Below, piece after piece: positions 3,381 to 63,240 of a DNA stretch of 64,000 nt. The stretch comes from a virus. Its lineage: Duplodnaviria; Heunggongvirae; Uroviricota; Caudoviricetes. Location of the stretch: IMG/VR virus record IMGVR_UViG_2740892439_000009, one strand, 5' to 3'. The notes beneath the pieces were generated by a model that was not told the DNA's origin, ran no database searches, and saw only the letters and a list, made by a program, of their open reading frames with translations. The stretch's first letter is position 1; each line of letters starts with the position of its first letter. The position numbers and the translations under genes were made by a program.

Positions 3381-3381
3381 T

Positions 3382-3765: not shown

Positions 3766-3839
3766 CTCAATTGGTAAGTATATACTTACTATTAGCGCAA
3801 TGAATGCGTAGAATTAACGGAAAAAGGAGTTTTCCATCA

Positions 3840-4586: not shown

Positions 4587-4647
4587 ATTGTGATAACCCA
4601 AGAGGCCCATGGATGGGCCTCTGTATGAGTTTAAAAGGATTTAAACC

Positions 4648-5622: not shown

Positions 5623-5681
5623 TTGAGCGCGTCGATACGACAACTTCTTCAGTAGATAAACTCACCGCGTCATTACGTAAA

Positions 5682-7415
5682 GTGCAATCAGAGCTAAATG
5701 ATTTCTCTGATTGGGCGACCTATGCAAGCAAAAGCGCAAGCCGCTTTGGTACGGAGGTCAAAGAAGCCTCTGCGTCCGTGAGTGGCATGAATACGCGCCT
5801 TAATACCACGACGAAGCGACTCAGTAATTGGGGTGTCACAACGAGTCAGGCTGCCGAGGGACTGAAAAAGGTTCGTGAGCAGATGGACGAAGTTATCGGA
5901 CGTCAGCAACTGATTAGCAAGCCGGTACGCGTTCGTACATCTGGAAGTGGCGATGGTGGTAGCGGGCGGCGTAGCGGCGCTTCTGGCCATAGCGGTAAAA
6001 GTAACGAAGGAGGTATGTTCTCTGGCCTTCGTGGCAACATTTTCCTGCTTGGCGAGATCGGAGATGCAGCCAGAACGGTTACTGACATCATGTTTGGGTG
6101 GCAGAAGCCTATTGTTGAAGCTGCGGCCGAAATGGAACGTATGCGGGTGATGCTTCGAGGGTTGAATAAGGAGAAGTCCAACCCGGGCCAGGCTGCCGCT
6201 GATGATATGAAGTACATCGTAGACATGGCTCAAAATGCGCCGTTCGCGATGCAGGCGTTAACAGACTCCTTCGTGAAGTTTCGTTCTGCTGGCTTAGATC
6301 CAACCGATGGTTCTCTGAAGGCGCTGGTGGACTCCGTTGCTCGTTTTGGTGGTGATAGTGAGCTGTTGAAACGTGCGGCTGTGGCCGTTCAGCAGATGTC
6401 CGGTAAGGGCGTTGTGTCAATGGAAGAGCTACGTCAGCAATTAGGTGAAGCCGTTCCTAACGCGATGCAGGCAATGGCAGACGCCGCAGGCATCACTATG
6501 GGGGAACTGACTAAAGCCGTTGCCAGCGGTACGGTTGAGGCAAAACAGGCGTTGTCTCTGATGTTTGTTGGTCTGCGTGCGGAGAATGAGAACGCAGCGA
6601 AAGACATGATGCAAACCTACACAGGTGCGCTGGCGCAACTTCAGACGTCATTCACGTTATTTGCTGATCGGGTTGGTCAGGCCGGATATCTGGATTCTCT
6701 ATCGAAGGGGATGAAAGAACTGGCTTCAATCATGAATAGCGCCGAAGGGATTTCGTTTGCCAATTCTTTAGGTTCGGGGTTAACAACGGCAATCGATGGG
6801 TTGCGTCAGCTTGCTCAATGGTTAGCAAAGAACCAAGAGCTGGTAATTAATCTCGGTAAGGTCGTGGCCGCGATGGTTGCGTTCAAACTGATGCGAGCAG
6901 GGATCATGGGGGTAGTTGGCGCTGGGAGCCAGATGGTTAGCACCTTTGCCACGATGGCGACCGCCATACAGACTCCATTTAACCTCGGCGCTACAGCAGT
7001 AACTCGATTCAATCGTGCGGCACGTATGGGGCTGGCTCCGATCCCCTCTCTTATTTTCGCCATCCGTGGGGCGATTACGGGGCTTAAAGGCGCTTTTGCT
7101 GGATTAACGGCGTTCATTGCAGCAAACCCTATAGGGGCAGCATTTACAGTTGCCACTGTAGCTGTTGCTGGCCTAATCACGTACATGACCATGCTCCGCA
7201 GCGAAACTTCAAAGGTCGTTGACGAGATTAGGAAAATACCAGAAGCGATGACAGCGGCCAAACGTGCACAAATGGCCGACCGCGCAGAAAAGCTCGAAAA
7301 GCAGATTCTTGCTGATCAACGAGCATTAAAAACTGGTGAGGGTGTTAATTACGTATCTAACTCTGCCGGTGTTATTACTCACAAAGAGTCGAAGCTGACA
7401 TCGAAGCACGCCTGA
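5682..7415 (+). CDS. Tape measure protein, middle segment
   Basis: Gly/Ser-rich stretch, long hydrophobic segments, position upstream of M/L/K/I/J. Confidence 0.65.
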   Translation: MQSELNDFSDWATYASKSASRFGTEVKEASASVSGMNTRLNTTTKRLSNWGVTTSQAAEGLKKVREQMDEVIGRQQLISKPVRVRTSGSGDGGSGRRSGASGHSGKSNEGGMFSGLRGNIFLLGEIGDAARTVTDIMFGWQKPIVEAAAEMERMRVMLRGLNKEKSNPGQAAADDMKYIVDMAQNAPFAMQALTDSFVKFRSAGLDPTDGSLKALVDSVARFGGDSELLKRAAVAVQQMSGKGVVSMEELRQQLGEAVPNAMQAMADAAGITMGELTKAVASGTVEAKQALSLMFVGLRAENENAAKDMMQTYTGALAQLQTSFTLFADRVGQAGYLDSLSKGMKELASIMNSAEGISFANSLGSGLTTAIDGLRQLAQWLAKNQELVINLGKVVAAMVAFKLMRAGIMGVVGAGSQMVSTFATMATAIQTPFNLGATAVTRFNRAARMGLAPIPSLIFAIRGAITGLKGAFAGLTAFIAANPIGAAFTVATVAVAGLITYMTMLRSETSKVVDEIRKIPEAMTAAKRAQMADRAEKLEKQILADQRALKTGEGVNYVSNSAGVITHKESKLTSKHA

Positions 7416-7486
7416 AAAAAAATCAGGAAGAGTATCAAAAGATAACCGGCACGATAGCTCTTGGTGACGGCGCTGTAGCAAAGCGT

Positions 7487-9844
7487 TTGGCTAAAGAGGC
7501 TGCCGAATCTCAGATTGAGAAAATTCGAGCGGAAAACCAGATTTTCGCGGCAACATTCGTGAAAGCCCGGCAGGAGGCTCTGGATAAGATCCAGAAAATC
7601 AATGATGACGGTTCACTTTCAGATGATGAAAAGAACAAGCTATTGGCACCGTTACGTGAAACGGTAAACAAAAGCTATCTTGAGCCTGCGCAAAAACTGG
7701 TTGATTCACTTTCTTCTCGTAAGAATGCGACCGAGAAGCAAATCGCGACTCTTAATGATCAGCTTGAAAAAGCCAAAAAGGATGGAAATACCGAGCAGAT
7801 CCAGAAACTGCAAGGCAGTATTCGTGGTTATCAGGAGCATTTGGAAGCCGTTGCTCAGGAGCTGACTCAGGCAGAGTTCGAGAGAGATAACGCGGCCAAA
7901 ACTGGTAAGGGCGTAATGTCAAACCAGGGGACTGTTCTTGGGTTAGGTACAACTGATAAAGCTGCTCAGAAGGCGCTGGCGCAATATATGCGAAACCAGA
8001 TGGATTCTGCGACTTATCAACGTACTTTGCCTGACGGCACTCCGATGATGGACTTCGAAGGTAAGCCGATTATTGGGCCTAAACAACTCAAGACGCAGCT
8101 TAATTTGCAGAAAGCATCCAGTGCCAGCTCTCTGGAGAAAATGAGCGATGAAGAGCGTGCCGCAGCCATTGCTGCACTGACTAAAGCTCGTGAACAGGAT
8201 GCAGCAGCCGCCGAGAAAGCAGCCCAACGATCAGCTAACGCCTCGCAGCGTGCGGCCAAGAAGGAACAGGCAGCGCAACAGAAATTGGCAGCCGGATACC
8301 AGAAGGCTCTGGACAAAGCCGATCAGCTTATGGGGCAAATGGGTGAAAGTTCAAAGGCCACCGTGTCGTTTGATCAGTCGCTGCGTGATGTCACTAAGTC
8401 ACTAACCGATCTTGCAAACGCCACGCCTAACGAGTTTATCTCGCAGGAGATGGTTGACCAGGCTAAAAAACGTCTCGCGGATTTGAGGAACGCTACCCCC
8501 GAATACAGTGAAATGTTTAATCGCCGCAACGTCGAGCAAATGATCAGCGCTTGGGCGCCGGAATCGGATTCGATTATCAGCGCAGGCTTGATGCAAAGCC
8601 ATGAGGAGAAGGCTGCAGAGTTTTCGGATACCTACAACCGCAATCTTAAGGCGCTGATCGAGCTGCGTGATAAGGCGACTGACCCGAAAATCATCTCGCT
8701 TTACAACAAGCAGCTTAATCAGCTGGTGGCCGCTGGCAATAATGCGCTGATTAAGCAAACAGGTACAGCGACCCAGCAGTTGGCTCTGGAGTATGAGAAC
8801 CTGGCTGAGCAGATTGAGGGCACCTGGACAGATCTGTTTAGCGGCTTAACTGACACGCTTACTGACTTTGTTGTTAACGGAAAGATGAGCTTCTCCAGTC
8901 TGGCCACATCGATCCTTAAAGACATCACCAACATGGTCGTGAAGACCCAGATCACTCTGCCTCTCATGAATATGTTGGGAATGGGAACGACAAACGCCGG
9001 CAATGCACAAAGTGGAAATCTCATGAATAGCGTAGCGTCTGCGATCGCTAATCAAGGGGTTCAGCTAGGTAATTCTGGTGGGTCGGTGGCCAATGGGGAT
9101 AAATCTGTCGGCGAGGCCACTAAGGAGACAGCCTCCGGCGTGAATTCGATGGGGCAAGCGTCTCAGAATGCGGCCAGTGGTTTAAGTCAGGCGGTGAATG
9201 GCGTCTGGGACTGGACTAAGTCATTGTTCACCGGTACTGACGCTACGAAAGATCAAACCAAAGCGGTTAACAGCAGCATCCTCAGTATGGGGAATCTGTC
9301 TACCGCGGCTGGGGCGCTGGCAGCTACATTCGCCATGGTAGGTGCTTCGTCGTCGAGTTCGTCCAGCCGTTGGCTGAATTTCGGTCTGTCACTGGCCAGT
9401 ACCGCAGTGTCCGCCTGGGCTGGGTCTTCGACGCCATCAGGCTCAAAGCCAAATGTGAAGAAGCACGCCAATGGCGGCATCTTTGGCAGGGAAGGGGTTG
9501 TGCCTCTGAGAGCTTATCAGAAAGGCGGAATTGCCACCTCACCACAGTTGGCGATGTTTGGCGAGGGCTCAATGAACGAGGCTTACGTTCCGTTGCCAGA
9601 TGGTCGAACCATTCCAGTCACACTTTCTGCAGAGTCGGCTGGAAAGAGCACGGGTAACGCGGTGTCCCCTGTCTCGATTCAGATCAATGTAACCAAGGAT
9701 GGCCGAACCAGCGAGAGCAGCAGTGGAAGCGAGAGCAGTCTCTGGAACGGCGCAGCACGGCAAATCAAGTCGATTGTGCTTGAGACGATTGCCGAAGAGA
9801 AACGTTCTGGTGGTTCACTTAATCCGCATACCACCAGAGGGTAG
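7487..9844 (+). CDS. Tape measure protein, C-terminal segment
   Basis: Frame open from 7361; long coiled-coil-like region; frame changes next to an A8 run at 7415-7422. Confidence 0.65.
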   Translation: MAKEAAESQIEKIRAENQIFAATFVKARQEALDKIQKINDDGSLSDDEKNKLLAPLRETVNKSYLEPAQKLVDSLSSRKNATEKQIATLNDQLEKAKKDGNTEQIQKLQGSIRGYQEHLEAVAQELTQAEFERDNAAKTGKGVMSNQGTVLGLGTTDKAAQKALAQYMRNQMDSATYQRTLPDGTPMMDFEGKPIIGPKQLKTQLNLQKASSASSLEKMSDEERAAAIAALTKAREQDAAAAEKAAQRSANASQRAAKKEQAAQQKLAAGYQKALDKADQLMGQMGESSKATVSFDQSLRDVTKSLTDLANATPNEFISQEMVDQAKKRLADLRNATPEYSEMFNRRNVEQMISAWAPESDSIISAGLMQSHEEKAAEFSDTYNRNLKALIELRDKATDPKIISLYNKQLNQLVAAGNNALIKQTGTATQQLALEYENLAEQIEGTWTDLFSGLTDTLTDFVVNGKMSFSSLATSILKDITNMVVKTQITLPLMNMLGMGTTNAGNAQSGNLMNSVASAIANQGVQLGNSGGSVANGDKSVGEATKETASGVNSMGQASQNAASGLSQAVNGVWDWTKSLFTGTDATKDQTKAVNSSILSMGNLSTAAGALAATFAMVGASSSSSSSRWLNFGLSLASTAVSAWAGSSTPSGSKPNVKKHANGGIFGREGVVPLRAYQKGGIATSPQLAMFGEGSMNEAYVPLPDGRTIPVTLSAESAGKSTGNAVSPVSIQINVTKDGRTSESSSGSESSLWNGAARQIKSIVLETIAEEKRSGGSLNPHTTRG

Positions 9845-9887: not shown

Positions 9888-10223
9888 ATGTCGAGGAAAG
9901 TATTTAATTGGTATCCAGATTATGAGTCTGAGAAAACCGTAAAGCCTAACGTGATCGTGCTGAACTACGGCGACGATTACGAGCAGCGCCAGTCGCAGGG
10001 GCTCAATCGGATTAAAGAAGAGTGGTCTCTCACGTTCACCCGTAGCCATGACGTGGTAAACGACGTTGATGACTTTTTGACTGCCCGCGCTGGGGTGGAG
10101 TCATTCATTTGGACTAACCCAAGAGGCAAAGCAATTATCGTGGTTTGTGACAGCCATACGGTAAAGCGTTACCCCGGTTATCAAGTGCTTACGGCAACAT
10201 TTAGACAGGTTTTTGAGTCTTAA
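9888..10223 (+). CDS. Minor tail protein M
   Basis: GDDYEQR, ESFIWTNP, VVCD and ATFRQV motifs parallel lambda gpM; ATG 9888 after AAGGA. Confidence 0.75.
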   Translation: MSRKVFNWYPDYESEKTVKPNVIVLNYGDDYEQRQSQGLNRIKEEWSLTFTRSHDVVNDVDDFLTARAGVESFIWTNPRGKAIIVVCDSHTVKRYPGYQVLTATFRQVFES

Positions 10224-29136: not shown

Positions 29137-29805
29137 ATGACCAAGATCTTTGTGGTTGGCGGCACAAAGGGCGGGCCTGGCAAATCCACCGTTGCCCAGC
29201 AAATTGCCGTTTGCCTGAAAGTCAAAAAGAAGAAGAAGGTTTATATCACCGATATAGATATTCAGCGCACGACAACGAGCTGGTGTGAAGACCGTCGACA
29301 GAACGAAGACCTTGAGCTGATTCCTTTTGCATACGTTCAGGATGACATCATTAAGCACCTAAAATCGCTTCAGGGTAGAGCTGAGTTTGTAGTGGTAGAT
29401 GCTGGTGGCTTCGACTCCGAAATTCAGCGACAAGCGATGCTGATGGCTGACGTTATCATTATCCCGCTGCGTCCTAAGCGTCGTGATTTGAAATCTTTAC
29501 GTGACATCGATCCTATTATCGACAATGTTCGCAATGTAAACGATAAAGTGAAGGTCCGCGCGGTCATGAACCAGTGCCCGGCTTTGCCATCACAAGTGTC
29601 TCGCATTCTGGCGGCTAAAGAGATTGTCGAGACGTTTGGCATCGAGTCTGCGCCAGTCAATCTATATAACCGCAACGTCTACGATGATGCGGAAGAGTCT
29701 GGTCGTTCTATCTTCGAAATGACCGGTAGCGAGCGCGACAAAAAGGCGGAAGCCGAGTTTGAAGAATTTGTAGATTATCTGTTGAGTCTGGAGGAAGAAG
29801 AATAA
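29137..29805 (+). CDS. parA: ParA-family partition ATPase (small type)
   Basis: Deviant Walker A GGTKGGPGKST; 222 aa. Confidence 0.75.
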   Translation: MTKIFVVGGTKGGPGKSTVAQQIAVCLKVKKKKKVYITDIDIQRTTTSWCEDRRQNEDLELIPFAYVQDDIIKHLKSLQGRAEFVVVDAGGFDSEIQRQAMLMADVIIIPLRPKRRDLKSLRDIDPIIDNVRNVNDKVKVRAVMNQCPALPSQVSRILAAKEIVETFGIESAPVNLYNRNVYDDAEESGRSIFEMTGSERDKKAEAEFEEFVDYLLSLEEEE

Positions 29806-38639: not shown

Positions 38640-38841
38640 TAAACGGGAGAAGGAAACGCTTCATGAAATCAGTAAGTGGCCGGAGTTCCCTGAGTACTGG
38701 AAGCCTAAAACGCGAGCTAAGTTAGAGCGTTTAGGGTTGGTTGCAAACGTTTCTGAAACGAAGTGTTCGGCCAACTACCAGTTAACTGATAAAGGGAAAG
38801 TATTGCTACAGCAATTAGTAGAATCAGGAGTGTTAAAATGA
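38626..38841 (+). CDS. Small hypothetical protein (71 aa)
   Basis: ORF in ATGA-coupled series. Confidence 0.4.
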   Translation: MIVLSKREKETLHEISKWPEFPEYWKPKTRAKLERLGLVANVSETKCSANYQLTDKGKVLLQQLVESGVLK

Positions 38842-38990
38842 TTCCATACATCTCATTAGCTTTTATGAGTGGCTTCCTTATCGGCTTCGGCATCTGTCGT
38901 GATTTAATTAAGCAGGAACTTAAAACCAAAACACTGTGCATCGGAAAGCGTGTGTATCGGGTAGTTCATGAAACAAAGGTTAAAAAATGA
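38838..38990 (+). CDS. Small membrane protein (50 aa)
   Basis: ATGA overlap; one TM; C-terminal KRVYRVVHETK resembles 38463 ORF. Confidence 0.35.
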   Translation: MIPYISLAFMSGFLIGFGICRDLIKQELKTKTLCIGKRVYRVVHETKVKK

Positions 38991-39803: not shown

Positions 39804-40068
39804 AAGACAGGATTGTTGTGTAGGTTTAACCACTGTTGCCATTGGTGCCTGTTTTCACAACAAATGATTCCATACATCACATTGTATAAATTACAAAGTA
39901 GGTGCTGTCCTCAAAAAACATCATCTACTTAAAGATTTTGCCTTCTATTGAGCGAAGTCGAAAACGTCTGGCACTAACGAAAAGTGCAAGTAGCGGTGCG
40001 TTTCCTGGCAGAAACTAACACCGCCGCGATTGGCACTGTTGAGTAATAAATACTGGCAGTGCTGAATT

Positions 40069-40143
40069 GATGGTGTAGCTCAGCGGTAGAGCAGTTGGCT
40101 GTTAACCAACTGGTCGGTGGTTCGAATCCACCCACCATCGCCA
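40069..40143 (+). tRNA. tRNA-Asn (anticodon GTT)
   Basis: Acceptor GATGGTG/CACCATC, D-arm GCTC..GAGC, anticodon loop CTGTTAA, T-loop TTCGAAT, encoded CCA. Confidence 0.8.
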
Positions 40144-40148
40144 ATTTA

Positions 40149-40235
40149 GGGGAGTTAGTCCGTAGAGGTAGCGGTGTAGACTGTAAATCTACTGTCATTG
40201 CGACTCGGGTGGTTCGACTCCATCACTCCCCACCA
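40149..40235 (+). tRNA. tRNA-Tyr (anticodon GTA), long variable arm
   Basis: Acceptor GGGGAGT/ACTCCCC, anticodon arm GTAGA-CTGTAAA-TCTAC, T-loop TTCGACT, CCA. Confidence 0.75.
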
Positions 40236-40239
40236 AATT

Positions 40240-40315
40240 GCCGGTTTAGCTCAGTTGGTAGAGCGCTGCCTTGTAAGCAGGATGTCAGCGGTTCGAGTCC
40301 GCTAACCGGCACCAA
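40240..40315 (+). tRNA. tRNA-Thr (anticodon TGT)
   Basis: Acceptor GCCGGTT/AACCGGC, D-arm GCTCAGTTGGTAGAGC, loop CTTGTAA, T-arm AGCGG-TTCGAGT-CCGCT, CCA. Confidence 0.7.
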
Positions 40316-40538
40316 TACAACGATAAGATCATTACGGTTAATCGTCGTTCATGTGCACAATGACTGGTCGAAAGGTAGTGATCTTACCGTTGTGGTGGAT
40401 TCGCAGACTGATGCGATAGCTTTCTTGGATGTTAGGGAAATGCGGCCGCAAATCTTCCCTTTCGCGAGCGGTGATCGTCCGTAGTCCTAATTGGCTGCAC
40501 CGTATGCCGGAGATTCAGTACCGGCCACCACAACGGCC

Positions 40539-40625
40539 GGAGAGTAGGGAGCATGGTGCTCAAGCGGTCTTGAAAACCGTCCCATTGCGCAAGCGATGAT
40601 GGTTCGATTCCATTACTCTCCGCCA
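40539..40625 (+). tRNA. tRNA-Ser (anticodon TGA), long variable arm
   Basis: Acceptor GGAGAGT/ACTCTCC, anticodon loop CTTGAAA, T-loop TTCGATT, CCA. Confidence 0.75.
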
Positions 40626-40779: not shown

Positions 40780-40803
40780 AAAGGGGCTTCGGCCCCTTTT
40801 CTT
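40780..40803. terminator. Bidirectional rho-independent terminator
   Basis: AAAGGGGC ttcg GCCCCTTTT flanked by T/A runs on both strands. Confidence 0.6.
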
Positions 40804-42014
40804 CAAAAAAGTTTTATAAATTCATAATTCTGGTCAATTAAGGATTCAATACACACCATGCAAAAATCTACATCGTCAAAATCAGGTGTGTAATATTCAT
40901 CCTCATAACATTCATTTAGACCTTCAATCAATTTTTCTTTAAAAACTCCCCACGTTTCAATATGAACCATTTCCATATAAGGCGCATGTGTATGTGCTTG
41001 CAATACATCCCAGGTGTCTATAACCTCGATCCGCGGCTTGCAATTAATTTTTTCTAAATATGCCTTCCCAGAATTGTAAATTTTCGACATTGATGCCCCA
41101 AAACCTGATGGTTGGTAATGAGTGTAAATGTCATAAATTTTTTGTCCTATTCTAGGGAGTTGAGAAGCATTGGATATTTGTGGCGAATGAAAGTATCGCT
41201 CTATGGAAGAAAACGCAGAAACATTAACTAGAGTAATCGTATATGGCGCTAAAGTTCTCTCATTCAAATTTCTACATAAAATAGCAAACCCATGGCTATT
41301 AGTCTTTTCACCGTCTGAGGACATTTTTGCCATGCTGGCTTTAATAACATTCAATTTCGAATGTAAACGAGAAGTTGAAGTCGGTTTATTATACATTTCA
41401 TCATCATACAAACATATATGAAACCCACCAAGATGACGAAATGAGAACTTGAGTGCTTCTTCCGCAATAACTAATTTATTAATATCTAAAGGAGTAAGTG
41501 ATACGTTACCTTGTAAATCATAGCAAGGTTCTAAACATAGAAAGTTTTTCTTCTGCCACACGATCATATTAAAAATAAAGTGTCTAACCAGGGGTGGCCA
41601 GTCAGGTGATATAAGTACATTGGTAATATCTCCATCAGACAAGTATGACAAGTAACTTTTTAGTTCCGCAGCATATGCCACCAACTCAGTTCCAGCTTCC
41701 CTTGTTGGTGTTGAAAAGTTTTTTAACTCAATAAGAACTAAGGATTCATTCTCTGTTGAATAAGCAACAACATCAGGTCTTAATATCTCAGATTTTGTTG
41801 CTGAGATATTCTCATCATCTGTCATTAAATGTAACAATGTTATGTTCTTTAAACAAAACTGATAACTCTCCTTAATTTTTTTCTCTTCGGGTCTTTTCGG
41901 ATTAAATTCGTTTAATTTATCAATATTGATGATTGAATTATATAATCCATCTTGATCAGATAATTTGTCAATTATCCAATTTTGCATTTCCTTTTCGCTT
42001 AAAAATATTGACAC
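40803..42014 (-). CDS. Candidate defence effector: 403-aa protein with putative PD-(D/E)xK nuclease motif
   Basis: RPDVVAY ... LVLIELK arrangement in N-terminal third; GTG start preceded by GGGAG; markedly AT-rich. Confidence 0.5.
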   Translation of the reverse strand: MSIFLSEKEMQNWIIDKLSDQDGLYNSIINIDKLNEFNPKRPEEKKIKESYQFCLKNITLLHLMTDDENISATKSEILRPDVVAYSTENESLVLIELKNFSTPTREAGTELVAYAAELKSYLSYLSDGDITNVLISPDWPPLVRHFIFNMIVWQKKNFLCLEPCYDLQGNVSLTPLDINKLVIAEEALKFSFRHLGGFHICLYDDEMYNKPTSTSRLHSKLNVIKASMAKMSSDGEKTNSHGFAILCRNLNERTLAPYTITLVNVSAFSSIERYFHSPQISNASQLPRIGQKIYDIYTHYQPSGFGASMSKIYNSGKAYLEKINCKPRIEVIDTWDVLQAHTHAPYMEMVHIETWGVFKEKLIEGLNECYEDEYYTPDFDDVDFCMVCIESLIDQNYEFIKLF

Positions 42015-42040
42015 TAATTAGGCTCCCGTTAAACCAAAAA

Positions 42041-42862
42041 TTAAAAATCTTGCTTTACTTTATCCATGGTCAGAATTTTGCTAATAATTGAAGATTCAAA
42101 TCCATCTAAACCTGAGAGAAAGTTAATTAGCTTTTGGATATGTTGTTCTTTAGGTATAAGTATATATTTTATATCATTGAACTCAAAATCAATGCCAAAC
42201 TTTGAAAATTCTGAGCTAATTTTTGCTTTGTCATCAGAAGTGATAACACGCTCCAAACTCAGACTAGGCCATAAATCACCAATAAAAGGAGCTGGCACAT
42301 AACGCCACTCTTTCTCGTCTGCATATATATAATTCTCTATTGTTTTATTATCTTTTCGCTCTAGCTTGCCTCTGTAATTTTTCATATAACGCAGTAAATT
42401 ATATAGATCAGAGTATTCTGCTTTCAATTTCTCAAACTCTATTCTGTTTTTGGTATCTAAATTTCCTCTAGCCTTCCAAAGCGGCACCAACTTATTTTTA
42501 ATAAGTCGAATTCTGGCATTGTATTTAGAAAATATTTCACTACTCTTATTCATATATAGAACTGGGTGTAGACCTTTCTTTTCCGCCCAAGACTTAGTTA
42601 GCCCAAGACCGAATTCTCCATATTTTCCGCTATGATCTCTGATTTGTGATAGTTTTATGTCACAAAACGATACCATTGGTACTGCAAACCTCCTACGTCC
42701 CCCGACTCCTCTTATTTCCTCGCGAGCAAGAAATGGTTTAAAATATTTCTCAGCCAATATGCTATAGAAAGCATCTTCGTTTTTTGTAAAATGAAACAAC
42801 GTGGTTGGATGAAGACTATAAACAGATTCAACATTCGCATCAGGATTTTCAAGGATAGTCAT
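42041..42862 (-). CDS. Candidate defence partner protein (about 273 aa from ATG; track ORF extends to 42907)
   Basis: ATG (MTILENPD) preceded by AGGTG; LFHFTK...YG.FGLGL motifs; AT-rich; co-oriented 26 bp upstream of the 403-aa gene. Confidence 0.5.
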   Translation of the reverse strand: MTILENPDANVESVYSLHPTTLFHFTKNEDAFYSILAEKYFKPFLAREEIRGVGGRRRFAVPMVSFCDIKLSQIRDHSGKYGEFGLGLTKSWAEKKGLHPVLYMNKSSEIFSKYNARIRLIKNKLVPLWKARGNLDTKNRIEFEKLKAEYSDLYNLLRYMKNYRGKLERKDNKTIENYIYADEKEWRYVPAPFIGDLWPSLSLERVITSDDKAKISSEFSKFGIDFEFNDIKYILIPKEQHIQKLINFLSGLDGFESSIISKILTMDKVKQDF

Positions 42863-42938
42863 TTTACACCTTGTGGAAAGCCAGTTTAGTTCTGTAAATA
42901 GTATCACACGACAGGCGGCTATTCTTCTATCAATAAAT

Positions 42939-43397: not shown

Positions 43398-43403
43398 TTT
43401 TAA

Positions 43404-43426
43404 CGGCTCACAGGAGCCGTTTTTTA
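43404..43426 (+). terminator. Rho-independent terminator
   Basis: CGGCTC acag GAGCCG followed by TTTTTT. Confidence 0.6.
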
Positions 43427-43468
43427 TTCCCACCAAACTCACTCCTGTTTCCCTTAAAATTCAAAAAA

Positions 43469-43501
43469 AAAACGTCTAAATGATTCCATACCTACTATGT
43501 A
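43469..43501. other. lox/FRT-like candidate recombination core: 13-bp perfect inverted repeats around a 7-bp spacer
   Basis: AATGATTCCATAC ctactat GTATGGAATCATT, about 110 bp upstream of the tyrosine recombinase gene. Confidence 0.45.
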
Positions 43502-43609
43502 TGGAATCATTACTGAAAATGAGTTACTTTTACTCTTGATCCTATAAGAATCTATGCCTAATATACTGTTTACTTATACAGTGCATCGGCGTAACTCGGT
43601 GATTGTCAT

Positions 43610-44713
43610 ATGAAAAATAGCTTTGACAGAGCACGCGCTGCGGAGAACACCTCAAAAGAGGCGATAGAGTATCTCGAAAGAGCATCTCAAATGCAGGCCG
43701 TTATGATCTCGCAGGTTAGCAATGACATGAGATTCTCGGACGCATTCATGTTATTCACTCGCTTATCTCTGCTGATAACCAGACGTCGGCCAGAGATCGC
43801 TGTTCATTGTATTTTGATACATGTTTTGCCGCACATTGCCGATGTAAAAGTAAGTGACATTAATAGGTTCATGGTGAACCAACTGGTCAACCCACTAATA
43901 CTGGATGGCAAAATTGTTATGGGCCGCCGCGTTTTCTCTCTGATGAAGCAGTTCCTTAGCTGGTGCGCCTTCCAGGGGATGATAGACGTGTCACCGTTAA
44001 ACGATATGTCACTTAACAAAGTTGCCGGTGGCGCAAAGCCCACACCTCGCGAGCGGAAGCTGACCGACGCAGAGGTATGGGTGTTCTGGAATATATGGGA
44101 CTACTTCAATGTGTGCGCTGGTACAAAATGGGCGGCCAGGCTGTGTCTTGTATCAGCAAGACGACCTGATGAAGTACTGCGGGCTAAAAAAAGTGAGTTC
44201 AATCTTAAGCGTGGGGTTTGGAATCAAGGCAAAAGAAACAAGTCAGCACGTGAGCATTCGCTGCCTTTAAGCACATTAATGCGCACATGCATTGAAGAGT
44301 TGTTCGAATACGGTAAAGACAGCCAGTGGCTCGTGCCTTCGAATAAAAAAATCGGGAAAGACCTTCCTATGTCTAAAGTGGCAATAGCCCAGGCATTACG
44401 TCGTATTCTGGAACGACCAGAACTGATGGAGCTTGAGCCATTTACACCCCGAGATTTGCGCCGTACTGCGCGTAGTTACTTCCCAGCATTAGGCATAAGC
44501 CAGGAGGTATCACGCAAAATCATGAACCACAGTCTTGAGGGGATAGATCGGGTCTACGACCGGCACGATTATATGGACGAGATGCGAGACGCCTTAGAAA
44601 GTTTCTCGACGTACATCGCATCAATCGTAGAGCAACCGGATTTAGACGAAATTGACCACAAATTCAAGGGAGATCGTCTATCAACAGAGCTTATTCGTGT
44701 AAATTTTTCATAG
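43610..44713 (+). CDS. int: Tyrosine recombinase (integrase/resolvase family)
   Basis: C-terminal R...H..R...Y pattern (DLRRTARSYF, MNHSLEG, VYDRHDY). Confidence 0.7.
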   Translation: MKNSFDRARAAENTSKEAIEYLERASQMQAVMISQVSNDMRFSDAFMLFTRLSLLITRRRPEIAVHCILIHVLPHIADVKVSDINRFMVNQLVNPLILDGKIVMGRRVFSLMKQFLSWCAFQGMIDVSPLNDMSLNKVAGGAKPTPRERKLTDAEVWVFWNIWDYFNVCAGTKWAARLCLVSARRPDEVLRAKKSEFNLKRGVWNQGKRNKSAREHSLPLSTLMRTCIEELFEYGKDSQWLVPSNKKIGKDLPMSKVAIAQALRRILERPELMELEPFTPRDLRRTARSYFPALGISQEVSRKIMNHSLEGIDRVYDRHDYMDEMRDALESFSTYIASIVEQPDLDEIDHKFKGDRLSTELIRVNFS

Positions 44714-45094
44714 AGACTTTATGGCCTCAACAACCTTTTGTGATGCGCCTTTCTCTTTACCGAATCGCTCGTTATATGCAGCAAGAACCTGTTTTTCGTC
44801 CTCGTTAAGAGGAGCGGTGCCTTCTTTGTATAAAAATGCTGCGAGTTCAGGTTGGCGTTCTTCCAGCACCATCATCATAAGACGACTTGGCTCAATACCC
44901 AGCGCCAGCGCCAACGGACGAACCTTATCGATAGGCAAAGGAATTTTGCCACTTTTAATTAAAGAAAGGTTGTTGGCATTTTTATAACCAATAAGTCTGG
45001 CTATTTGGGCCTGACTCATAGGTGAGGATTCAATCAGCCCTGCGATAAAAGCAGCATAGCGACTTTCTATAAATTCAATCTTGTTGTCAGACAT
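44708..45094 (-). CDS. XRE-family HTH transcriptional regulator (repressor-like)
   Basis: HTH segment SQAQIARLIGYKNANNLSLIKSG. Confidence 0.6.
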   Translation of the reverse strand: MSDNKIEFIESRYAAFIAGLIESSPMSQAQIARLIGYKNANNLSLIKSGKIPLPIDKVRPLALALGIEPSRLMMMVLEERQPELAAFLYKEGTAPLNEDEKQVLAAYNERFGKEKGASQKVVEAIKSL

Positions 45095-45126
45095 TGTTAC
45101 AACCTTTGCGCGTTCAATTCTCTCTG

Positions 45127-45140: not shown

Positions 45141-45345
45141 ATATTACATCAAAGGTTAGGGTTGTAAAGCTATTATCATTTTTTTCGATAGGCACTTAAA
45201 AGACCGGTTAAAGGCCATTGCACGGAGAAAAATTAGCCCAAAATAGGTAAGAAAATTAACTTGCATATGATATGAATGTATTCAGTATTGATATAGATTT
45301 TAGTAGTATTCCTTACCATAGTATAAGTTAGAATGGATTGATTGA

Positions 45346-45558
45346 ATGAACACCACTATTCCCAGCCTAATCGCTCTTGAGATCGGACACGTACAGAAAT
45401 TAGCTGATGAGTGTGTAGCTGACATCCTCACCGATCTACCGAATGAGCAGATTCAGGTTGGTGTGAATGACACAACTGGCTTTATATTCGAACTTAACAA
45501 CAAACGCTTCACGCTTCTCAATACCGGCTCCGGGTCTTTAGCCGTCAGAATCTGTTAA
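45346..45558 (+). CDS. Small hypothetical protein divergent from regulator
   Basis: 70-aa ORF. Confidence 0.35.
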   Translation: MNTTIPSLIALEIGHVQKLADECVADILTDLPNEQIQVGVNDTTGFIFELNNKRFTLLNTGSGSLAVRIC

Positions 45559-49274: not shown

Positions 49275-52200
49275 ATGAAGGCACTGATGGTTCGAACTGA
49301 CTTCTCACTTGGGGAGTCGGCTTTAAAAGCAGAAAACGCGGTGAAGATTGCCAGAGAAGCTGGCTACACCGCTGTAATTTCAGCAGATAGCATGAATATT
49401 GCGAGCGTTATTCCACTACAACGTGCCGCTGGTGACGACATGGCGGTTATTTGTGGTGTGAAACTAAACATTGTTGATGATCCCACATACGAGCACCGGG
49501 TTAAACTTGCTAAAGAATCTATGAGATGTATGGAATCATTAGAGCGGGGACGTAACTACTCGTTTACCGCTCTAATTAAAAATGAGCAAGGATATCGCGA
49601 CATCTGCGAACTAATGACGGTGGCCAACACACGAGAACAGTTCTACTTTGTACCGCGTCTCTCGCTCGAACAGTTGGTTTCTACATATGCCAAAGGCAAC
49701 ATCATCCTGCTCACTTCCGACATCGGTAGCGTGTTCCAACGCAACGATTTTGCAAAAATCATAAGCTCACTGATTACAGCGGGCGGGAAAGACAACTTCT
49801 ATAGCGTGGTTTATCCGCACCCTACCCCATTCTACGACCAGATTAACGTCCGGGCGATGAAAGTCGCCAGCGCATTGAAAATAGAGCCAGTGGCGTTCTA
49901 TCCCGCTTATTACGAATCGATCGACGATGCAGACATTAAAGACATTGCGCACATGGTTACGAACAACATAAAAATCGACCAGCCGCATCGTCTGCGTATC
50001 CCCCACCAGCGAGATAACGCCATCAATGGTCGTCGCCATCTCCTTGAGGCGCTTAAAGCCTTCTCCGTTCGCATGGATGTGCCGGTAACAGCTGCAATGG
50101 CCTCAACAACGCAGGACTCCATTATCGATGCCTGCACATGGCGCTGGCATGAATTGCCACCAGCACTGCCCAAGATGGCAGACGACGAACCTGCAACGCT
50201 GATGAAACTGGCTGTTGCAGGGCTGCGTAAACGTCTTACCACAAAAGAGTTTGGATACACACCACCTGCTTCTGAGAACAGGGTTTATGTTGAGCGGCTA
50301 AAGTACGAAATGGACACGCTGACTCGCCTGGGATTCTGTGGTTACTTCCTGATGGTACGCGATCTGATGAATCACAGCCGTGAAACTGGCATTCCTGTCG
50401 GGCCTGGTCGTGGTTCCTCTGCCGGTTCTCTGGTGGCGTGGTGCATAGGCATAACCAACGTCGACCCAATCCGTCACGGTCTTCTGTTTGAGCGTTTCAT
50501 CAACCCTGAGCGTCTCGACTTGCCGGATGCGGACTTGGACTTCAGCCAGGCACGTCGCCATGAGGTGATCGAGTATCTGAATGAACGCTACGGCGAAGAT
50601 TACGTTGCAGGCATTCCGAACTTCACCTATCTGGGCGCGGCATCTGCGCTGCGTGACACTGCACGTATTTACGGTGTCGATGCTGCGGATATGGCGGTAT
50701 CCAAAGAGTTCAAGAATATGGAGGACGACAGCCTGTCTCTGGAAGAGCTGCGCGAGCAACTGGCCAGCCTGGACAAATACGCCACGAAAAACCCGGAAGC
50801 GTTCAAAGCGGCGTGTAAGCTGCAAAGCCTGATGCGTGGTTTTGGTCGTCACGCTGCGGGGATGATCGTCGCTGGCGTTCCATTAGTAGAGCGCACGCCC
50901 GTCGAGCTGCGTGGCAATGCTCGATGTATTGCGTTCGATAAACGTTACTGCGAGGCGATGGGGCTGATTAAGTTGGACGTTCTCGGTCTGGCAACACTCG
51001 ATCTTCTGGATAGCGCGAAACGCTACATCAAAGAGAGTACCGGTGAATACATCAATCTCGACGCTATCCCACTGGACGATCGCAAGGTTCTGGATGGGTT
51101 CGCTGCAGGGTACACGCAGGGCGTATTCCAGCTGGAGTCCGGCCCCATGCGTAAGCTGCTTAAAGATCTGGGCGGTGGCATCGAGCCAATGAGTTTCAAA
51201 ACCGTTGTCGCAACTACCGCCCTCTTCCGACCGGGACCGATTCAATCCGGCATGTTGGATGACTATGTTTCCGTTGCGAAAGGATTTATGACGCCTACAT
51301 CACTACATCCTGTCTTGGATGAACTGACCTCTGAAACAAATGGAGTGATTCTCTATCAGGAACAAACGATGAACGCAACAAGGCTTCTTGCTGGTTTCAC
51401 AATGGCCGAGGCGGATGGTGTGCGTTCAGCAATCGGTAAGAAGAACATGGAAAAGATGAGGAGCATGGGTGAGAAATTTGTCATTCAGGCTCAAGCTGGG
51501 TGGATCGACGTAGAGCTTGAAAATGGCGCAATACAACGGATTCATCGCGCAGAACATTTTAAATGCGAGGACGGTACTCTGAGGACAGTTGAAGAGGCGT
51601 TGGAGCATGGAGTGAAGCTGCCAATGCCAGTTGTGCGCGTTACAACGTCACATCCAGGTCTGTCTGAGACGAAGGCAAAAGAGATATGGACTGCATTTGA
51701 GAAAAACGGAGCCTATCAGTTCAATAAATCACACTCCGTTGCTTATTCTTTAATCAGTTATCAGTCTATGTGGCTAAAGACGCACTACCCTGCTGAGTTC
51801 TTCGCAGCTGCGCTCACCATTCTGGGCGAGGATAAGCATCAGGGGCTGGTGAAGGATGCGCTGACCTATGGCATTCGCGTATTGCCACCAGACGTTAATG
51901 TGTCATCTAACCGAATTGAGATCCGCACACTCGAAGACGGCAGTCAGGCACTGTATGCGCCATTCTCTGCTGTGAAAGGCTGTTCTGAAAATGGTTGTCA
52001 GGCAATTATGCGTGCGCGTGAGAAAGTTGGTGGCAAATTCGAGTCAGTGGCACAATTCGATGAAGCGGTCGAGAAGCGTGCATGTAACAGTCGTGTACGC
52101 GAGTCGCTTCATAAAGTAGGGGCTTTTGCGTCAATTGAGCCAGGCAGTCTGCCAGCAACTGATCCTGAACGACTGCGCGACCAGGCTGAGCTGATGGGCA

Positions 52201-52793
52201 ATCTCATCATTGACGCTGTTAAAGCATCACGTCCGTTCGAAATGAATCCTAAGCGTTCTGCCGAAATCAACGTACTCATGACACGTATGGCGGCTGAAAT
52301 GGGCTTGGGTGAGGAGTTGATACGCCCGACTATTGGTATTAAACCCAAAATCATGATCATTCTGGACAATGCGAACGGCAATGACGCTCGTACCGGCTAC
52401 TTCATGGAGAACGGATACGACGACTTTAAGGCAAAACTACTGACAGTTGGAGATCTGCGCATGGGCGATCTTTATGTCACGGGTGTTTGTAAGAAGGTTA
52501 AGGACAAAGAGAAAGACTATACCAAAGACGAGATAGGCCAGTTCACAGACTTTATGCGGGAAGAAATTAATCTTGTACGACCAACCTACATTTTGACGTG
52601 TGGTAGTCGTTCAACCGCACTATTTAACAATAAGAGTAAACCATCAGATCTGATTGGTCGTAAGGAGTACTTCCCAGAGCTTGATGCAACCGTCTTCTAC
52701 GGATTTAACCCGAATATCCTGTACTTCCGACCGGAAGAAGGAGAGCGACTGGAGGCCATTCTGGCTGATATCGCGGAGACAATAAATAAGTAA
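49275..52793 (+). CDS. dnaE: DNA polymerase III alpha subunit-like (DnaE-type) replicative polymerase
   Basis: 1172 aa; GLIKLDVLGL and GVILYQEQ motifs characteristic of the Pol III alpha core. Confidence 0.75.
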   Translation: MKALMVRTDFSLGESALKAENAVKIAREAGYTAVISADSMNIASVIPLQRAAGDDMAVICGVKLNIVDDPTYEHRVKLAKESMRCMESLERGRNYSFTALIKNEQGYRDICELMTVANTREQFYFVPRLSLEQLVSTYAKGNIILLTSDIGSVFQRNDFAKIISSLITAGGKDNFYSVVYPHPTPFYDQINVRAMKVASALKIEPVAFYPAYYESIDDADIKDIAHMVTNNIKIDQPHRLRIPHQRDNAINGRRHLLEALKAFSVRMDVPVTAAMASTTQDSIIDACTWRWHELPPALPKMADDEPATLMKLAVAGLRKRLTTKEFGYTPPASENRVYVERLKYEMDTLTRLGFCGYFLMVRDLMNHSRETGIPVGPGRGSSAGSLVAWCIGITNVDPIRHGLLFERFINPERLDLPDADLDFSQARRHEVIEYLNERYGEDYVAGIPNFTYLGAASALRDTARIYGVDAADMAVSKEFKNMEDDSLSLEELREQLASLDKYATKNPEAFKAACKLQSLMRGFGRHAAGMIVAGVPLVERTPVELRGNARCIAFDKRYCEAMGLIKLDVLGLATLDLLDSAKRYIKESTGEYINLDAIPLDDRKVLDGFAAGYTQGVFQLESGPMRKLLKDLGGGIEPMSFKTVVATTALFRPGPIQSGMLDDYVSVAKGFMTPTSLHPVLDELTSETNGVILYQEQTMNATRLLAGFTMAEADGVRSAIGKKNMEKMRSMGEKFVIQAQAGWIDVELENGAIQRIHRAEHFKCEDGTLRTVEEALEHGVKLPMPVVRVTTSHPGLSETKAKEIWTAFEKNGAYQFNKSHSVAYSLISYQSMWLKTHYPAEFFAAALTILGEDKHQGLVKDALTYGIRVLPPDVNVSSNRIEIRTLEDGSQALYAPFSAVKGCSENGCQAIMRAREKVGGKFESVAQFDEAVEKRACNSRVRESLHKVGAFASIEPGSLPATDPERLRDQAELMGNLIIDAVKASRPFEMNPKRSAEINVLMTRMAAEMGLGEELIRPTIGIKPKIMIILDNANGNDARTGYFMENGYDDFKAKLLTVGDLRMGDLYVTGVCKKVKDKEKDYTKDEIGQFTDFMREEINLVRPTYILTCGSRSTALFNNKSKPSDLIGRKEYFPELDATVFYGFNPNILYFRPEEGERLEAILADIAETINK

Positions 52794-52798
52794 TAAAG

Positions 52799-52826
52799 AA
52801 AACCCGCCTGTTGGCGGGTTTATAAA
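52799..52826 (+). terminator. Rho-independent terminator
   Basis: AAACCCGCC tgtt GGCGGGTTT. Confidence 0.6.
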
Positions 52827-61450: not shown

Positions 61451-61985
61451 CACCGCTGACAGCATACACAATCAACTACCGCTGATAGCATATCGAGAGT
61501 CTATCTCACCGCTCACAGCATACTTTACTCGATTTTTTACCGCTGACAGCATACTTAAGACATTGCATGAATAATGTGTACCGGTATGGGTATAACCAGA
61601 ACAAAATTACCGCTGGCAGCATACGAAGGTCTGACATATGCCATTAATTACCGCTGATAGCATATCCAAACAAAAATTCCTCAATAAAACACCGCTGACA
61701 GCATACATTCTATCAGAGAGTAGCAGGCAATAAATGCCTTTCACTACAAGCAATCAGCGCAATAGCAATAGAATGTTAGTGAGCGCAAACCTATATGGAA
61801 TGCACTCTTCGAGGTTAGTAACCACTGGGGAGGTATGACAGAGCATTGAGTGGTGATAGATGATTTACCGCTCACAGCATACGTTCATCTCACTATACCG
61901 CTGGTAGCATATCTTTAACCGTTCACAGCATACTTTTCAGAAAAATAGCCGCTGATAGCATACATTTCACCGCTGACAGCATATC
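61451..61985. repeat. Iteron array (12 copies, consensus about yACCGCTGACAGCATAC) downstream of repA
   Basis: Copies near 61451, 61478, 61507, 61538, 61607, 61647, 61690, 61865, 61896, 61917, 61947, 61969. Confidence 0.8.
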
Positions 61986-63078
61986 AAAGCAGTTTGAGAC
62001 TATTGGAAAGGATCTCAATCATCTTGATATTTTCAGGCGTCAAATTCTGCGAAAGTTCAGTTATCTTGTTGATAATGTTCTGTTTGGCATCAATTTCCCC
62101 GGCTTTCTCATCTGGTTTTTTGGGTTCGATGTCTTCAGGTTTTGGCGGTGCGACTTTGAGTTTTGGATTGCGGCTGTGAATCTGGATATAGATCGACCGC
62201 CCACGCTTAATCTCGCTGTATTCGAGATAGCCCAAATCTTGGAGAGCTTTTAAGCCGTTACGTATAGTCTGATTCTGCGAGCTGACATTCCTGCTACTCA
62301 AATTGAGTCGCGCACGCAATCGAGCAAGCGATACCGGCGCAGGCTTGGTTGGAAGACTTTCGATGAAGGTGTACAGAGCCTGTGCTGTTTCTTTGCGTGG
62401 TAGCTTATTGATAACCTTTAACTGCAAAAGAACCTTATGGTCAAAGCGATATAGTTCGGCCAGCTTCGGTTCTGCATAGAACACCACCGTATCTTTCTGC
62501 TCGTTGTAGTCCACGCTATTGATGAGGTGCACCATCAGAAGCGAGATCTTGTTAGAGCCGTCGACGTTCTTTTCTTCATACGTTCTCTGGAAAGACAGAG
62601 TTGTACGCATGATCTTCAAAAGACTGTTTGTAAGCCGGTCGCGGAGTGTTTTGCGGATCTGTGACGATGGATAGCCACAAAACTTCGCAAATTTCGTGAT
62701 GCTTAACTCGACACGACCATTAGGTTCGCCGTATTCTGCCAGCGAACGCACAACGCCCACCCACGTTTTGAAATCATGATCCATGTCCAGGCGAGGACCG
62801 GTTATCTTGATATCGGAATAGCCTTCAGAACGGGCTACTTCGAGCTGGACAAGCTCCTTTGAAGCATCGATCTCATTTGGCTTGTTACGTTTACTGTATT
62901 TTGTTCCCTTAAGCGTGGGGACGAACAACCCCAGTCGCATCAACGCAATTGGTTGGACTGTATTGTTGCTATTAGGGACAAGTTCCCCTGTGTACAATTC
63001 AAGGGAACCTTCTTCAAAGTTGTCGATGTTATCTTCTACTTCTTTGTTATTTTTACCTTTTTTATTTTTTGTGGACAT
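61984..63078 (-). CDS. repA: Plasmid replication initiator RepA (iteron-binding)
   Basis: Flanked on both sides by iterons; ATG (MSTKNKKGKNNK) preceded by AGGTG; track ORF extends to 63198. Confidence 0.65.
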   Translation of the reverse strand: MSTKNKKGKNNKEVEDNIDNFEEGSLELYTGELVPNSNNTVQPIALMRLGLFVPTLKGTKYSKRNKPNEIDASKELVQLEVARSEGYSDIKITGPRLDMDHDFKTWVGVVRSLAEYGEPNGRVELSITKFAKFCGYPSSQIRKTLRDRLTNSLLKIMRTTLSFQRTYEEKNVDGSNKISLLMVHLINSVDYNEQKDTVVFYAEPKLAELYRFDHKVLLQLKVINKLPRKETAQALYTFIESLPTKPAPVSLARLRARLNLSSRNVSSQNQTIRNGLKALQDLGYLEYSEIKRGRSIYIQIHSRNPKLKVAPPKPEDIEPKKPDEKAGEIDAKQNIINKITELSQNLTPENIKMIEILSNSLKLL

Positions 63079-63098
63079 GTGGACACCTTTGTCATTCA

Positions 63099-63200
63099 AC
63101 CGCTGACAGCATACTTGATTTGCCGCTGACAGAATACCAAAAACAGTTGGCAGCATACGGTGAACCGCTGACAGACTATCAATTACCGCTGACAGCATAC
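63099..63200. repeat. Origin-proximal iterons (4-5 copies) upstream of repA
   Basis: AACCGCTGACAGCATAC, TGCCGCTGACAGAATAC, GAACCGCTGACAGACTAT, TTACCGCTGACAGCATAC plus a partial copy. Confidence 0.75.
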
Positions 63201-63240
63201 ATGAACATGGCTTCAGACCAGTCGTGGCGCGGCTTACAGC

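Follow-up and report, generated by a model that had tools for sequence, protein, structure and literature searches.

A 33-bp inverted repeat beside a tyrosine recombinase gene is the probable core site of a multimer resolution system in SSU5-type phage-plasmids

The DNA analyzed here is a stretch of 64,000 nucleotides from a virus of the class Caudoviricetes (IMG/VR record IMGVR_UViG_2740892439_000009), which is called the window in the following. At the locus of interest, a perfect inverted repeat with two 13-bp arms and a 7-bp spacer is followed by a gene for a 367-aa tyrosine recombinase, referred to as int. A preliminary description of this DNA had pointed to both features and had compared them with the Cre/loxP and Flp/FRT systems. 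The palindrome was found in the sequence as described, and its positions are given in Table 1. It ends 98 bp before the ATG of int (position 43610), and its centre lies ~115 bp from the ATG, so the earlier estimate of about 110 bp was a fair one. Perfect 13-bp arms with a spacer of up to 10 bp are expected by arithmetic only ~0.01 times per 64 kb. As single-stranded DNA the palindrome folded at -11.2 kcal/mol (z = -7.5 relative to shuffled sequences). Apart from the core arm, no repeated motif was found near the site.

The replicon is a phage-plasmid of the SSU5/pHCM2/pMT1 type (SSU5 supergroup), and its nearest relatives are elements of E. coli. The grouping of these relatives in the SSU5 supergroup of phage-plasmids has been described before (PMC7969092). 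The int region was 96-99% identical to that of ~110-kb E. coli plasmids and of the phages Cyrano, CMS-2020a and PhiR41_1, and 73-78% identical to that of plasmids from Klebsiella, Enterobacter, Citrobacter and Cronobacter, of S. Typhi pHCM2 and of Y. pestis pMT. The int module was present on 841 plasmids of PLSDB. Furthermore, the replication and partition genes that had been mentioned as companions of the site in the same window (repA with iterons, and parA) were all located, as a Rep_3-type RepA, 14 iterons and a ParA-like ATPase.

Table 1. Positions of the site, the recombinase gene and other features in the window.
Feature	Position	Strand	Description
Proposed core recombination site	43479-43511		33 bp; perfect 13-7-13 inverted repeat
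Left arm	43479-43491		AATGATTCCATAC
Spacer	43492-43498		CTACTAT, 7 bp
Right arm	43499-43511		GTATGGAATCATT
A-tract element	43456-43472		AAAATTCAAAAAAAAAA; 7-23 bp left of the palindrome
int	43610-44713	+	367-aa tyrosine recombinase with core-binding and catalytic domains (Pfam, profile, AF2)
Putative σ70 promoter of int	43536-43564	+	-35 TTGATC at 43536-43541; 17-nt spacer; -10 TAATAT at 43559-43564
Predicted LexA (SOS) box	43564-43583		TACTGTTTACTTATACAGTG; abuts the -10; would overlie the presumed start of transcription
Intrinsic terminator of the upstream glutaredoxin gene	43402-43421	+	
Half-site A	38837-38852	+	AATGATTCCATACATC (arm + ATC); overlaps the start codon (ATG) of a gene for a 50-aa protein (38838-38990, phrog_6302)
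Half-site B	39863-39878	+	AATGATTCCATACATC; intergenic, ~190 bp upstream of the tRNA-Asn/Tyr/Thr/Ser cluster
Half-site D	49525-49540 (13-mer at 49528)	minus	AATGATTCCATACATC; inside dnaE (49275-52793)
Degenerate half-site E	44216-44228	minus	CTTGATTCCAAAC; inside int
RepA (Rep_3)	61984-63198	minus	
14 iterons	61451-61985 and 63098-63201		18 nt, consensus YACCGCTGACAGCATAC; flanking the Rep_3 repA
ParA-like ATPase	29137-29805		

That the gene downstream of the palindrome encodes a tyrosine recombinase was borne out by several comparisons. The protein matched Pfam PF00589 well above the cutoff (E 4.7e-10, 39.9 bits vs. 27.1) and PF22022 weakly. A profile of the family aligned to residues 59-342 of λ Int (E 1.8e-12), with R185, K211, R284, H307 and the nucleophile Y316 opposite λ Int R212, K235, R311, H333 and Y342, respectively. 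The AlphaFold2 (AF2) model (pLDDT 84.7) was that of a two-domain recombinase with a short helical N-terminus (residues 1-40), and the best matches of Foldseek in the PDB were the core and catalytic domains of λ Int, the Tn1549 Int and Xer, with IntI (2A3V, weaker) and XerH also found. The match to Cre was weak (E ~1.5e-2, TMq 0.44). A single-sequence search of the PDB with Int gave no matches, and the family profile search, which found λ Int and Xer, detected no sequence homology to Cre.

The arm-binding domain PF13356 was absent from Int in the Pfam scan, and the alignment to λ Int started only at residue 59. The homologues of Int formed a discrete clade of proteins of ~365 aa, and their next relatives were P4-type integrases with at most 34% identity, which do carry PF13356. 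Judged by sequence, Int would be a simple recombinase of the Cre/Flp kind in its action and a λ/P4-type integrase in its descent. An overlap region of 7 bp is canonical for λ-Int-type enzymes, and the 7-bp spacer of the palindrome fits this λ/P4-type ancestry.

To follow the site in relatives, GTDB genomes and IMG/VR were searched with the pattern ATGATTCCATAC-N7-GTATGGAATCAT, which matched 7 GTDB genome contigs and 101 IMG/VR contigs, and annotated relatives were added. The distance from the site to int was scored wherever the fetched DNA included int, which gave ~118 loci (numbered with an L where needed below). The palindrome lay 97-101 bp upstream of the int ATG in all of them, save for one clade with a distance of 45-47 bp. 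In that clade Int was ~57-61% identical, and the right arm overlapped the likely -35 of int. The arms were invariant across these loci although the surrounding DNA was only 74-86% identical. The spacer was 7 bp long in every locus and occurred in 13 different sequences, among them CTACTAT, CTATTAA, TTGGTAG, TTGTAAG and TTATATA. It differed even between elements whose Int proteins were at least 98% identical.

Where the arms changed, they changed together. Int homologues with 44-48% identity were found on a 508-kb replicon of Pantoea vagans, on a 723-kb replicon of Rahnella, and on phage-plasmids of Xenorhabdus, Providencia and Moellerella, and each had an upstream palindrome with a 7-bp spacer and with both arms altered to TGACTCCAGAC. 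In lineage L012, GTGATTCC stood in both arms, and one Klebsiella lineage carried GTGATTCCATAC in both arms. The module was also found away from phage genes. A 250-kb Chimaeribacter plasmid without phage genes had an Int of 57% identity and identical arms, and the Pantoea and Rahnella megaplasmids are likewise non-phage replicons with no mobile-element context around their member of the int family. The non-phage plasmids examined shared only int and the palindrome with the element in the window.

Arms that either do not vary or change symmetrically, a spacer that is free in sequence but fixed in length, and strict linkage to a recombinase gene together correspond, as far as sequence can tell, to the anatomy of a tyrosine recombinase core site. 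The comparison with Cre/loxP or Flp/FRT geometry was therefore well placed, with two inverted arms and an asymmetric 7-bp spacer, the arms invariant and the length fixed in the ~118 loci.

The spacer was also found in inverted form. For both CTACTAT and CTATTAA, the exact reverse complements (ATAGTAG and TTAATAG, respectively) were found as spacers too. Between PhiR41_1 and an IMG/VR contig the flanks were identical and the spacers opposite. Such flips in situ have occurred at least two independent times (L003:9001-9033 vs. L063; L018/L065 vs. the pHCM2 type). A flip would be neutral for a resolution site. It could have arisen by recombination after antiparallel synapsis, which is conceivable because the spacers are nearly symmetric (xTAyTAz), or by template switching at the hairpin. 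In K. pneumoniae pKPHS1 (L131, NC_016838), a group II intron with a retA reverse transcriptase gene lies at 6992-9002 between the palindrome and the start of int, which puts ~2 kb between int and both the site and the promoter. Homology that begins only at the int ATG was considered as a recombination product and was discarded, as in pKPHS1 it results from this intron insertion.

The int region was found at 262 places in 252 of the 5426 complete E. coli genomes (~4.6%), and none of these places was chromosomal. All GTDB matches of the pattern lay on plasmid-sized contigs. SSU5-type elements have been described as exclusively extrachromosomal (PMC9600943). Moreover, the rapid change of the spacer would be tolerable only if the usual partner is a copy of the same site, as in a dimer, and it would break an attP/attB pair. 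On the closest complete plasmid no other site-specific recombinase was annotated in the PLSDB gene tables, which are incomplete.

From these results we consider it likely that the neighboring Int recombines DNA at the 33-bp palindrome as its own core site, with multimer resolution as the most likely function among the possible intra-replicon roles. The earlier proposal of plasmid dimer resolution rather than chromosomal integration agrees with a site that was never chromosomal in the 252 complete E. coli genomes, has a free spacer and travels with int into non-phage plasmids.

In the proposed mechanism, two Int monomers would bind the two identical 13-bp arms, and a pair of these sites, such as the two copies carried by a head-to-tail dimer of the plasmid, would synapse as a tetramer. 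Y316 would cleave at the borders of the 7-bp overlap region, and strand exchange through a Holliday junction would convert dimers into monomers. The spacer alone would give the site its direction, as it does in loxP and FRT, because a spacer of odd length is never its own reverse complement. Since Int has no arm-binding domain and no arm-type repeats lie nearby, a simple Cre-like way of working would be expected. The job of the system would be the multimer resolution of a low-copy prophage plasmid, and possibly also the circularization of incoming phage DNA.

The control of int was then considered. The putative int promoter was read from the sequence and agreed with the consensus at 8 of 12 positions, slightly below the threshold of the promoter scan. 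Its position was conserved in the E. coli, Klebsiella, Salmonella, Yersinia and Enterobacter clades. The CTGT-N8-ACAG core of the predicted LexA box (43566-43581) was the only one in the window; 0.92 are expected, so it is not significant alone. Nearly all loci of the main clade had this core at the corresponding position (e.g., TACTGTATATAAACACAGTA and TACTGTTTATACATACAGTA), and the clades with the box comprised those of E. coli, Klebsiella, Salmonella, Yersinia and Enterobacter as well as L012. The Chimaeribacter-type clade with the short distance of 45-47 bp was without a LexA box. Because the box is conserved in position at the int promoter, int is probably SOS-inducible, LexA binding being predicted from the consensus. 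SOS control of int would fit both RecA-generated multimers and prophage induction; the level of Int would rise on DNA damage, when these occur. The Cyrano prophage was reported to be induced by ciprofloxacin (PMC9928086).

Beyond int lie a gene for a helix-turn-helix (HTH) "repressor" (44708-45094) and a 70-aa gene (45346-45558), and in the divergent region between them an inverted repeat, TTACAACC ... GGTTGTAA, was observed at 45097-45104 and 45160-45167. The two halves of this repeat are candidate operators of the prophage repressor, and they are unrelated to the Int arm.

A second copy of the site elsewhere in the genome had been suggested as a check. Such copies were found in part: the exact 13-mer arm occurred three more times in the window as a single arm, and the remaining 50 kb of the closest plasmid contained no copy. 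With the two arms of the palindrome this makes five copies in the window, compared with ~0.002 expected. The single copies are called half-sites A, B and D, and a degenerate copy inside int is called half-site E (Table 1). The clades of pHCM2, pMT, Enterobacter and Klebsiella have half-site E in intact form (TTGATTCCATACATC). It may be partly a coding coincidence, since it encodes V-W-N-Q with an invariant W204.

The single copies were invariant across clades and genera. At half-site A, a run of 15 nt was invariant in 23 distinct sequences, while only 43% of the flanking columns were. Half-site A was kept in the Klebsiella, pHCM2, pMT and Enterobacter clades and in SSU5, and half-site B was conserved across clades. 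In L012, half-site B also carried GTGATTCC, that is, the same A-to-G change as both arms of the palindrome. At half-site D, 11 of 11 columns were invariant among 32 distinct sequences; single-nucleotide polymorphisms crowd this site at 49517-49526 and 49541-49553, and none falls inside it. Half-site D encodes the peptide ..CMES.. in a variable loop of DnaE. The loop differs wherever the motif is absent, and therefore the DNA motif dictates the peptide and not the reverse.

In the relatives the arm was continued by ATC in 141 of 167 copies. All 78 copies on the left were on the plus strand and all 89 copies on the right were on the minus strand, so that every copy pointed toward the palindrome. 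The 167 copies represent only ~5 independent site classes, however, which gives a P of ~0.03 for this orientation. No half-sites were present within ±10 kb in the phage-plasmids of Xenorhabdus, Providencia and Moellerella, near the Pantoea and Rahnella megaplasmid copies, or in the non-phage plasmids. Missing from the phage-plasmids of the TGACTCCAGAC clade and from non-phage plasmids, the half-sites are therefore a lineage-specific addition and not part of the core module. For the same reason they were rejected as a general trait of the family, most of which lacks them while the palindrome is universal.

No inversions or deletions between the copies were seen, and the relatives were collinear. 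Shufflon-type inversion as in Rci/sfx was also rejected: the single arms are in direct register with the palindrome, the relatives are collinear, and two copies lie in essential or conserved genes. A role as mosaic or crossover points was likewise dismissed, since the divergence step nearest to a half-site lies at ~50,600, ~1 kb past D, and none was found at A, B or D. Nor did the half-sites coincide with the boundaries of cargo. We infer that the half-sites are additional Int-binding sites with a non-recombinational, regulatory or polar role. As a tentative extension, which we regard as possible though hardly probable, Int may have a second job, with the half-sites forming an SOS-triggered network of regulatory or polar Int-binding sites around the resolution site. 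By analogy with Ter/KOPS around dif or with the XerD half-sites, such a network might act through roadblocks to transcription or replication or through DNA organization. If this were true, it would tie prophage induction, replication genes and multimer resolution together.

Several observations were made in the neighborhood of the half-sites. Four tRNA genes (Asn-GTT, Tyr-GTA, Thr-TGT and Ser-TGA; 40069-40625, plus strand) lie downstream of half-site B, and their number varies among relatives. In dnaE a sharp mosaic boundary was seen at ~50,600, where the divergence from most close relatives rises from 1-3% to ~20%; the part beyond it (~50600-52800) makes up the 3' two-thirds of dnaE. An indel is present near 51,460-51,680 (gap 51459-51679), and one relative has an HNH endonuclease annotated in this part of the gene. 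In the closest relative (L002; pEcFELIX526.1, NZ_CP101923), ISEcp1-blaCTX-M-15 is inserted at 1665-4058, directly behind the gene for DNA ligase. The insertion lies ~0.9 kb upstream of half-site A, in the same variable part of the element.

In Salmonella phage SSU5 (L010, JQ965645; 5906-6142), the cargo region, the palindrome, int, the HTH "repressor" gene and the 70-aa gene were all missing, and tRNA-Asn was directly followed by cobT. Half-site B of this phage had a point mutation (ATGATTCCgTAC). The loss of the int/repressor segment may be linked to the isolation of SSU5 as a plaque-forming phage. Recombination between motif copies was rejected as the origin of this deletion, as the junction between tRNA-Asn and cobT contains no motif.

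The palindrome might instead be only an operator, at which Int or another protein regulates int or its neighbors and no recombination takes place. Autoregulation is plausible in the clade with the 45-47 bp distance, where the right arm overlaps the likely -35, and scattered single arms resemble a regulon of binding sites more than a set of recombination sites. In the window, however, the palindrome ends ~25 bp upstream of the -35, which is a poor position for a repressor, and the half-sites that recall a regulon are missing in most of the family. Its sole constant companion is a tyrosine recombinase whose nucleophile and active-site residues are intact, and arms of 11-14 bp around a strictly 7-bp spacer of free sequence have the anatomy of a crossover site. 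We therefore consider a purely regulatory palindrome unlikely, and regulation and recombination at the palindrome are mutually compatible in any case. The product of the HTH "repressor" gene is an unlikely binder of the palindrome. The Chimaeribacter locus, with identical arms, has neither a homologue of this neighboring gene nor half-sites, and the repeat upstream of the repressor gene itself differs from the arm.

The DNA directly to the left of the palindrome was hypervariable, with 64 distinct 40-bp flanks. Homology among the relatives resumes at 43460-43479, and insertions in relatives replace the DNA from 43369/43378 to 43467/43477. The resulting slot is bounded by the terminator of the glutaredoxin gene and by the palindrome. 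In the window, the variable region contains an AbiGi-family abortive-infection gene (PADLOC, E 5.5e-47) and a gene for a 403-aa partner (40803-42907, minus strand). The partner had no match in PADLOC and may be a divergent AbiGii-like effector. In other relatives, the slot or the region behind it holds YafO toxin modules. In Cyrano it was reported to hold a highly expressed moron (PMC9928086). In Y. pestis pMT (L008, NZ_CP045159), the F1-capsule operon caf1R-caf1M-caf1A-caf1 occupies 4245-9373 in the slot. The last gene, caf1, ends ~630 bp upstream of the palindrome (10003-10033), and half-site B and the tRNA/glutaredoxin region are replaced. A hidden partner gene beside the site was looked for and rejected: the minus-strand genes to the left in Cyrano and pHCM2, 40% identical to each other, are unrelated to those of Chimaeribacter and L012.

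Such a hotspot, with AbiGi, YafO modules and the caf1 operon as cargo, would suit an attP- or attI-like site used for chromosomal integration or for SOS-controlled, integron-like capture of cargo. The layout itself resembles that of intI/attI: transcription of int leads away from the site, the int promoter has a LexA box, and the cargo lies on the far side of the site. The total lack of chromosomal occurrences (0/262 in E. coli) speaks against it, and so does the fast change of the spacer, which does not suit a fixed partner site. At the distal boundaries of six different insertions, no second arm was found beyond the chance expectation of 2.4 per kb, and no attC-like repeats were present. These boundaries lay at the end of grx or elsewhere, and not at copies of the motif. 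On the near side, the breakpoints are not exactly at the crossover region, because a block conserved through a semi-conserved A-tract extends ~25 bp to the left of the arm. The pattern would be explained equally well if the intergenic slot were simply permissive, lying as it does between a terminator and a site that is essential. We judge an att-like function to be improbable. Because of the A-tract block and the missing second site at the far ends, no claim is made that Int captures cargo, and Int-mediated cassette capture was dropped as unsupported. The A-tract pattern AGAWTTYAAAAAA, related to the element in Table 1, was common to the 64 distinct left flanks even where they stood beside unrelated DNA further left, and the conserved A-tracts might bend the DNA or could bind an accessory factor of the host.

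It is very unlikely that the palindrome has nothing to do with Int and serves in DNA structure or transcription, as a terminator, a cruciform or a signal for replication. It does form a stable hairpin and is followed after 6 nt by a T10 run on the minus strand in this window. The T/A run is not kept in relatives, however, and the stem is invariant in sequence and not only in pairing, whereas compensatory changes would be tolerated in a terminator. The glutaredoxin gene already has a terminator. Moreover, such an element would leave unexplained why the palindrome strictly co-occurs and covaries with int on unrelated replicons.

Some points weigh against a core site for multimer resolution. The first His of the HxxR motif (λ H308) is replaced by Arg281 in 23 of 23 family members, whereas it is His in 5 of 6 P4-type outgroup sequences. 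Five of the six active-site residues are thus canonical, and that Int is fully competent in catalysis is an assumption. With repression by LexA, the lysogen would contain little Int, and this is not an obvious design for a housekeeping resolvase. The plain lox model does not predict extra half-sites. No accessory sequences that would impose selectivity for resolution were identified, and another resolvase could be overlooked in the incomplete PLSDB gene tables. SSU5 is still a viable phage without the int/repressor segment, and the module is thus dispensable for lytic growth. In the literature, which was searched for the site sequence and for the pMT1/pHCM2 integrase, no experiment on the site and no description of it was found. 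In short, the comparisons show the anatomy of site and gene, their linkage and covariation, the fold and catalytic residues of Int and the restriction to plasmids, and from these we infer Int binding, catalysis, the resolution role, the control by LexA and the function of the half-sites. Given the extra single arms and the SOS control, the system appears to be more than a minimal pair of lox and recombinase.

Compared with known systems, the pair of Int and its site would work like Cre/loxP of P1, although Int is not a member of the Cre family. Both are tyrosine recombinases of plasmid prophages with a site close to the gene, perfect inverted arms of 13 bp and a short asymmetric spacer. Neither has arm-type sites or an arm-binding domain, and the role in multimer resolution or circularization is presumed here as well. 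This is the role that Cre has in P1 (PMC7969092). The differences are the length of the spacer (7 bp here, 8 bp in loxP), the lack of detectable sequence homology to Cre, the λ/P4-type descent, the LexA box at the promoter and the additional single-arm copies. On the other hand, λ Int and the P4-type integrases are the closest relatives in structure and sequence and share the 7-bp overlap. The present system differs from them in the perfect symmetry of its arms and in the Arg that stands in HxxR where the first His would be. It also has neither an N-terminal arm-binding domain nor arm-type sites, and no integrated state was found.

ResD/rfsF of F and Flp/FRT of the yeast 2-micron plasmid are also plasmid-encoded recombinases that act on a simple site of the same replicon, as would be the case here. 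In FRT a third binding arm adjoins the core, while the extra arms described here lie kilobases away. By eye, the arms did not resemble those of dif or cer; XerCD sites of this type are 28-30 bp long, with one XerC and one XerD arm. In the integron pair IntI/attI, as here, the promoter of the recombinase has an SOS box, and the variable cargo and the recombinase gene lie on opposite sides of the site. Unlike integrons, the locus shows no attC-type folded sites or cassette arrays, and Int has no specific similarity to IntI; its site is a conventional double-stranded palindrome, and the genes of the cargo are ordinary ones that bring their own signals. For the half-sites, the XDS half-sites that bind XerD in the terminus of B. 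subtilis and Ter/KOPS around dif are examples of non-recombination or polar sites, and serve as an analogy only. Scattered single arms oriented toward a full site are common to both; here the scale is that of a plasmid (~10 kb), and binding by Int is only predicted.

Taken by sequence, Int and its site appear to be a new, widespread and uncharacterized member of the simple tyrosine recombinase/site systems. If confirmed, this would be a Cre/lox-like pair, made up of a 33-bp site and a single 367-aa enzyme, on hundreds of clinically relevant replicons. The carriers include ~4.6% of complete E. coli genomes, phage-plasmids of Klebsiella and Enterobacter, S. Typhi pHCM2 and Y. pestis pMT1. It would also explain how low-copy prophage plasmids of ~110 kb escape loss driven by multimers. 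At least two natural arm specificities (TGATTCCATAC and TGACTCCAGAC) together with many spacers make these systems possible orthogonal tools for genome engineering. The locus matters for the acquisition of cargo as well, as its slot holds defense genes, toxin modules and the F1-capsule operon of plague, and the conserved half-sites and the SOS control hint at extra biology of this family of phage-plasmids.

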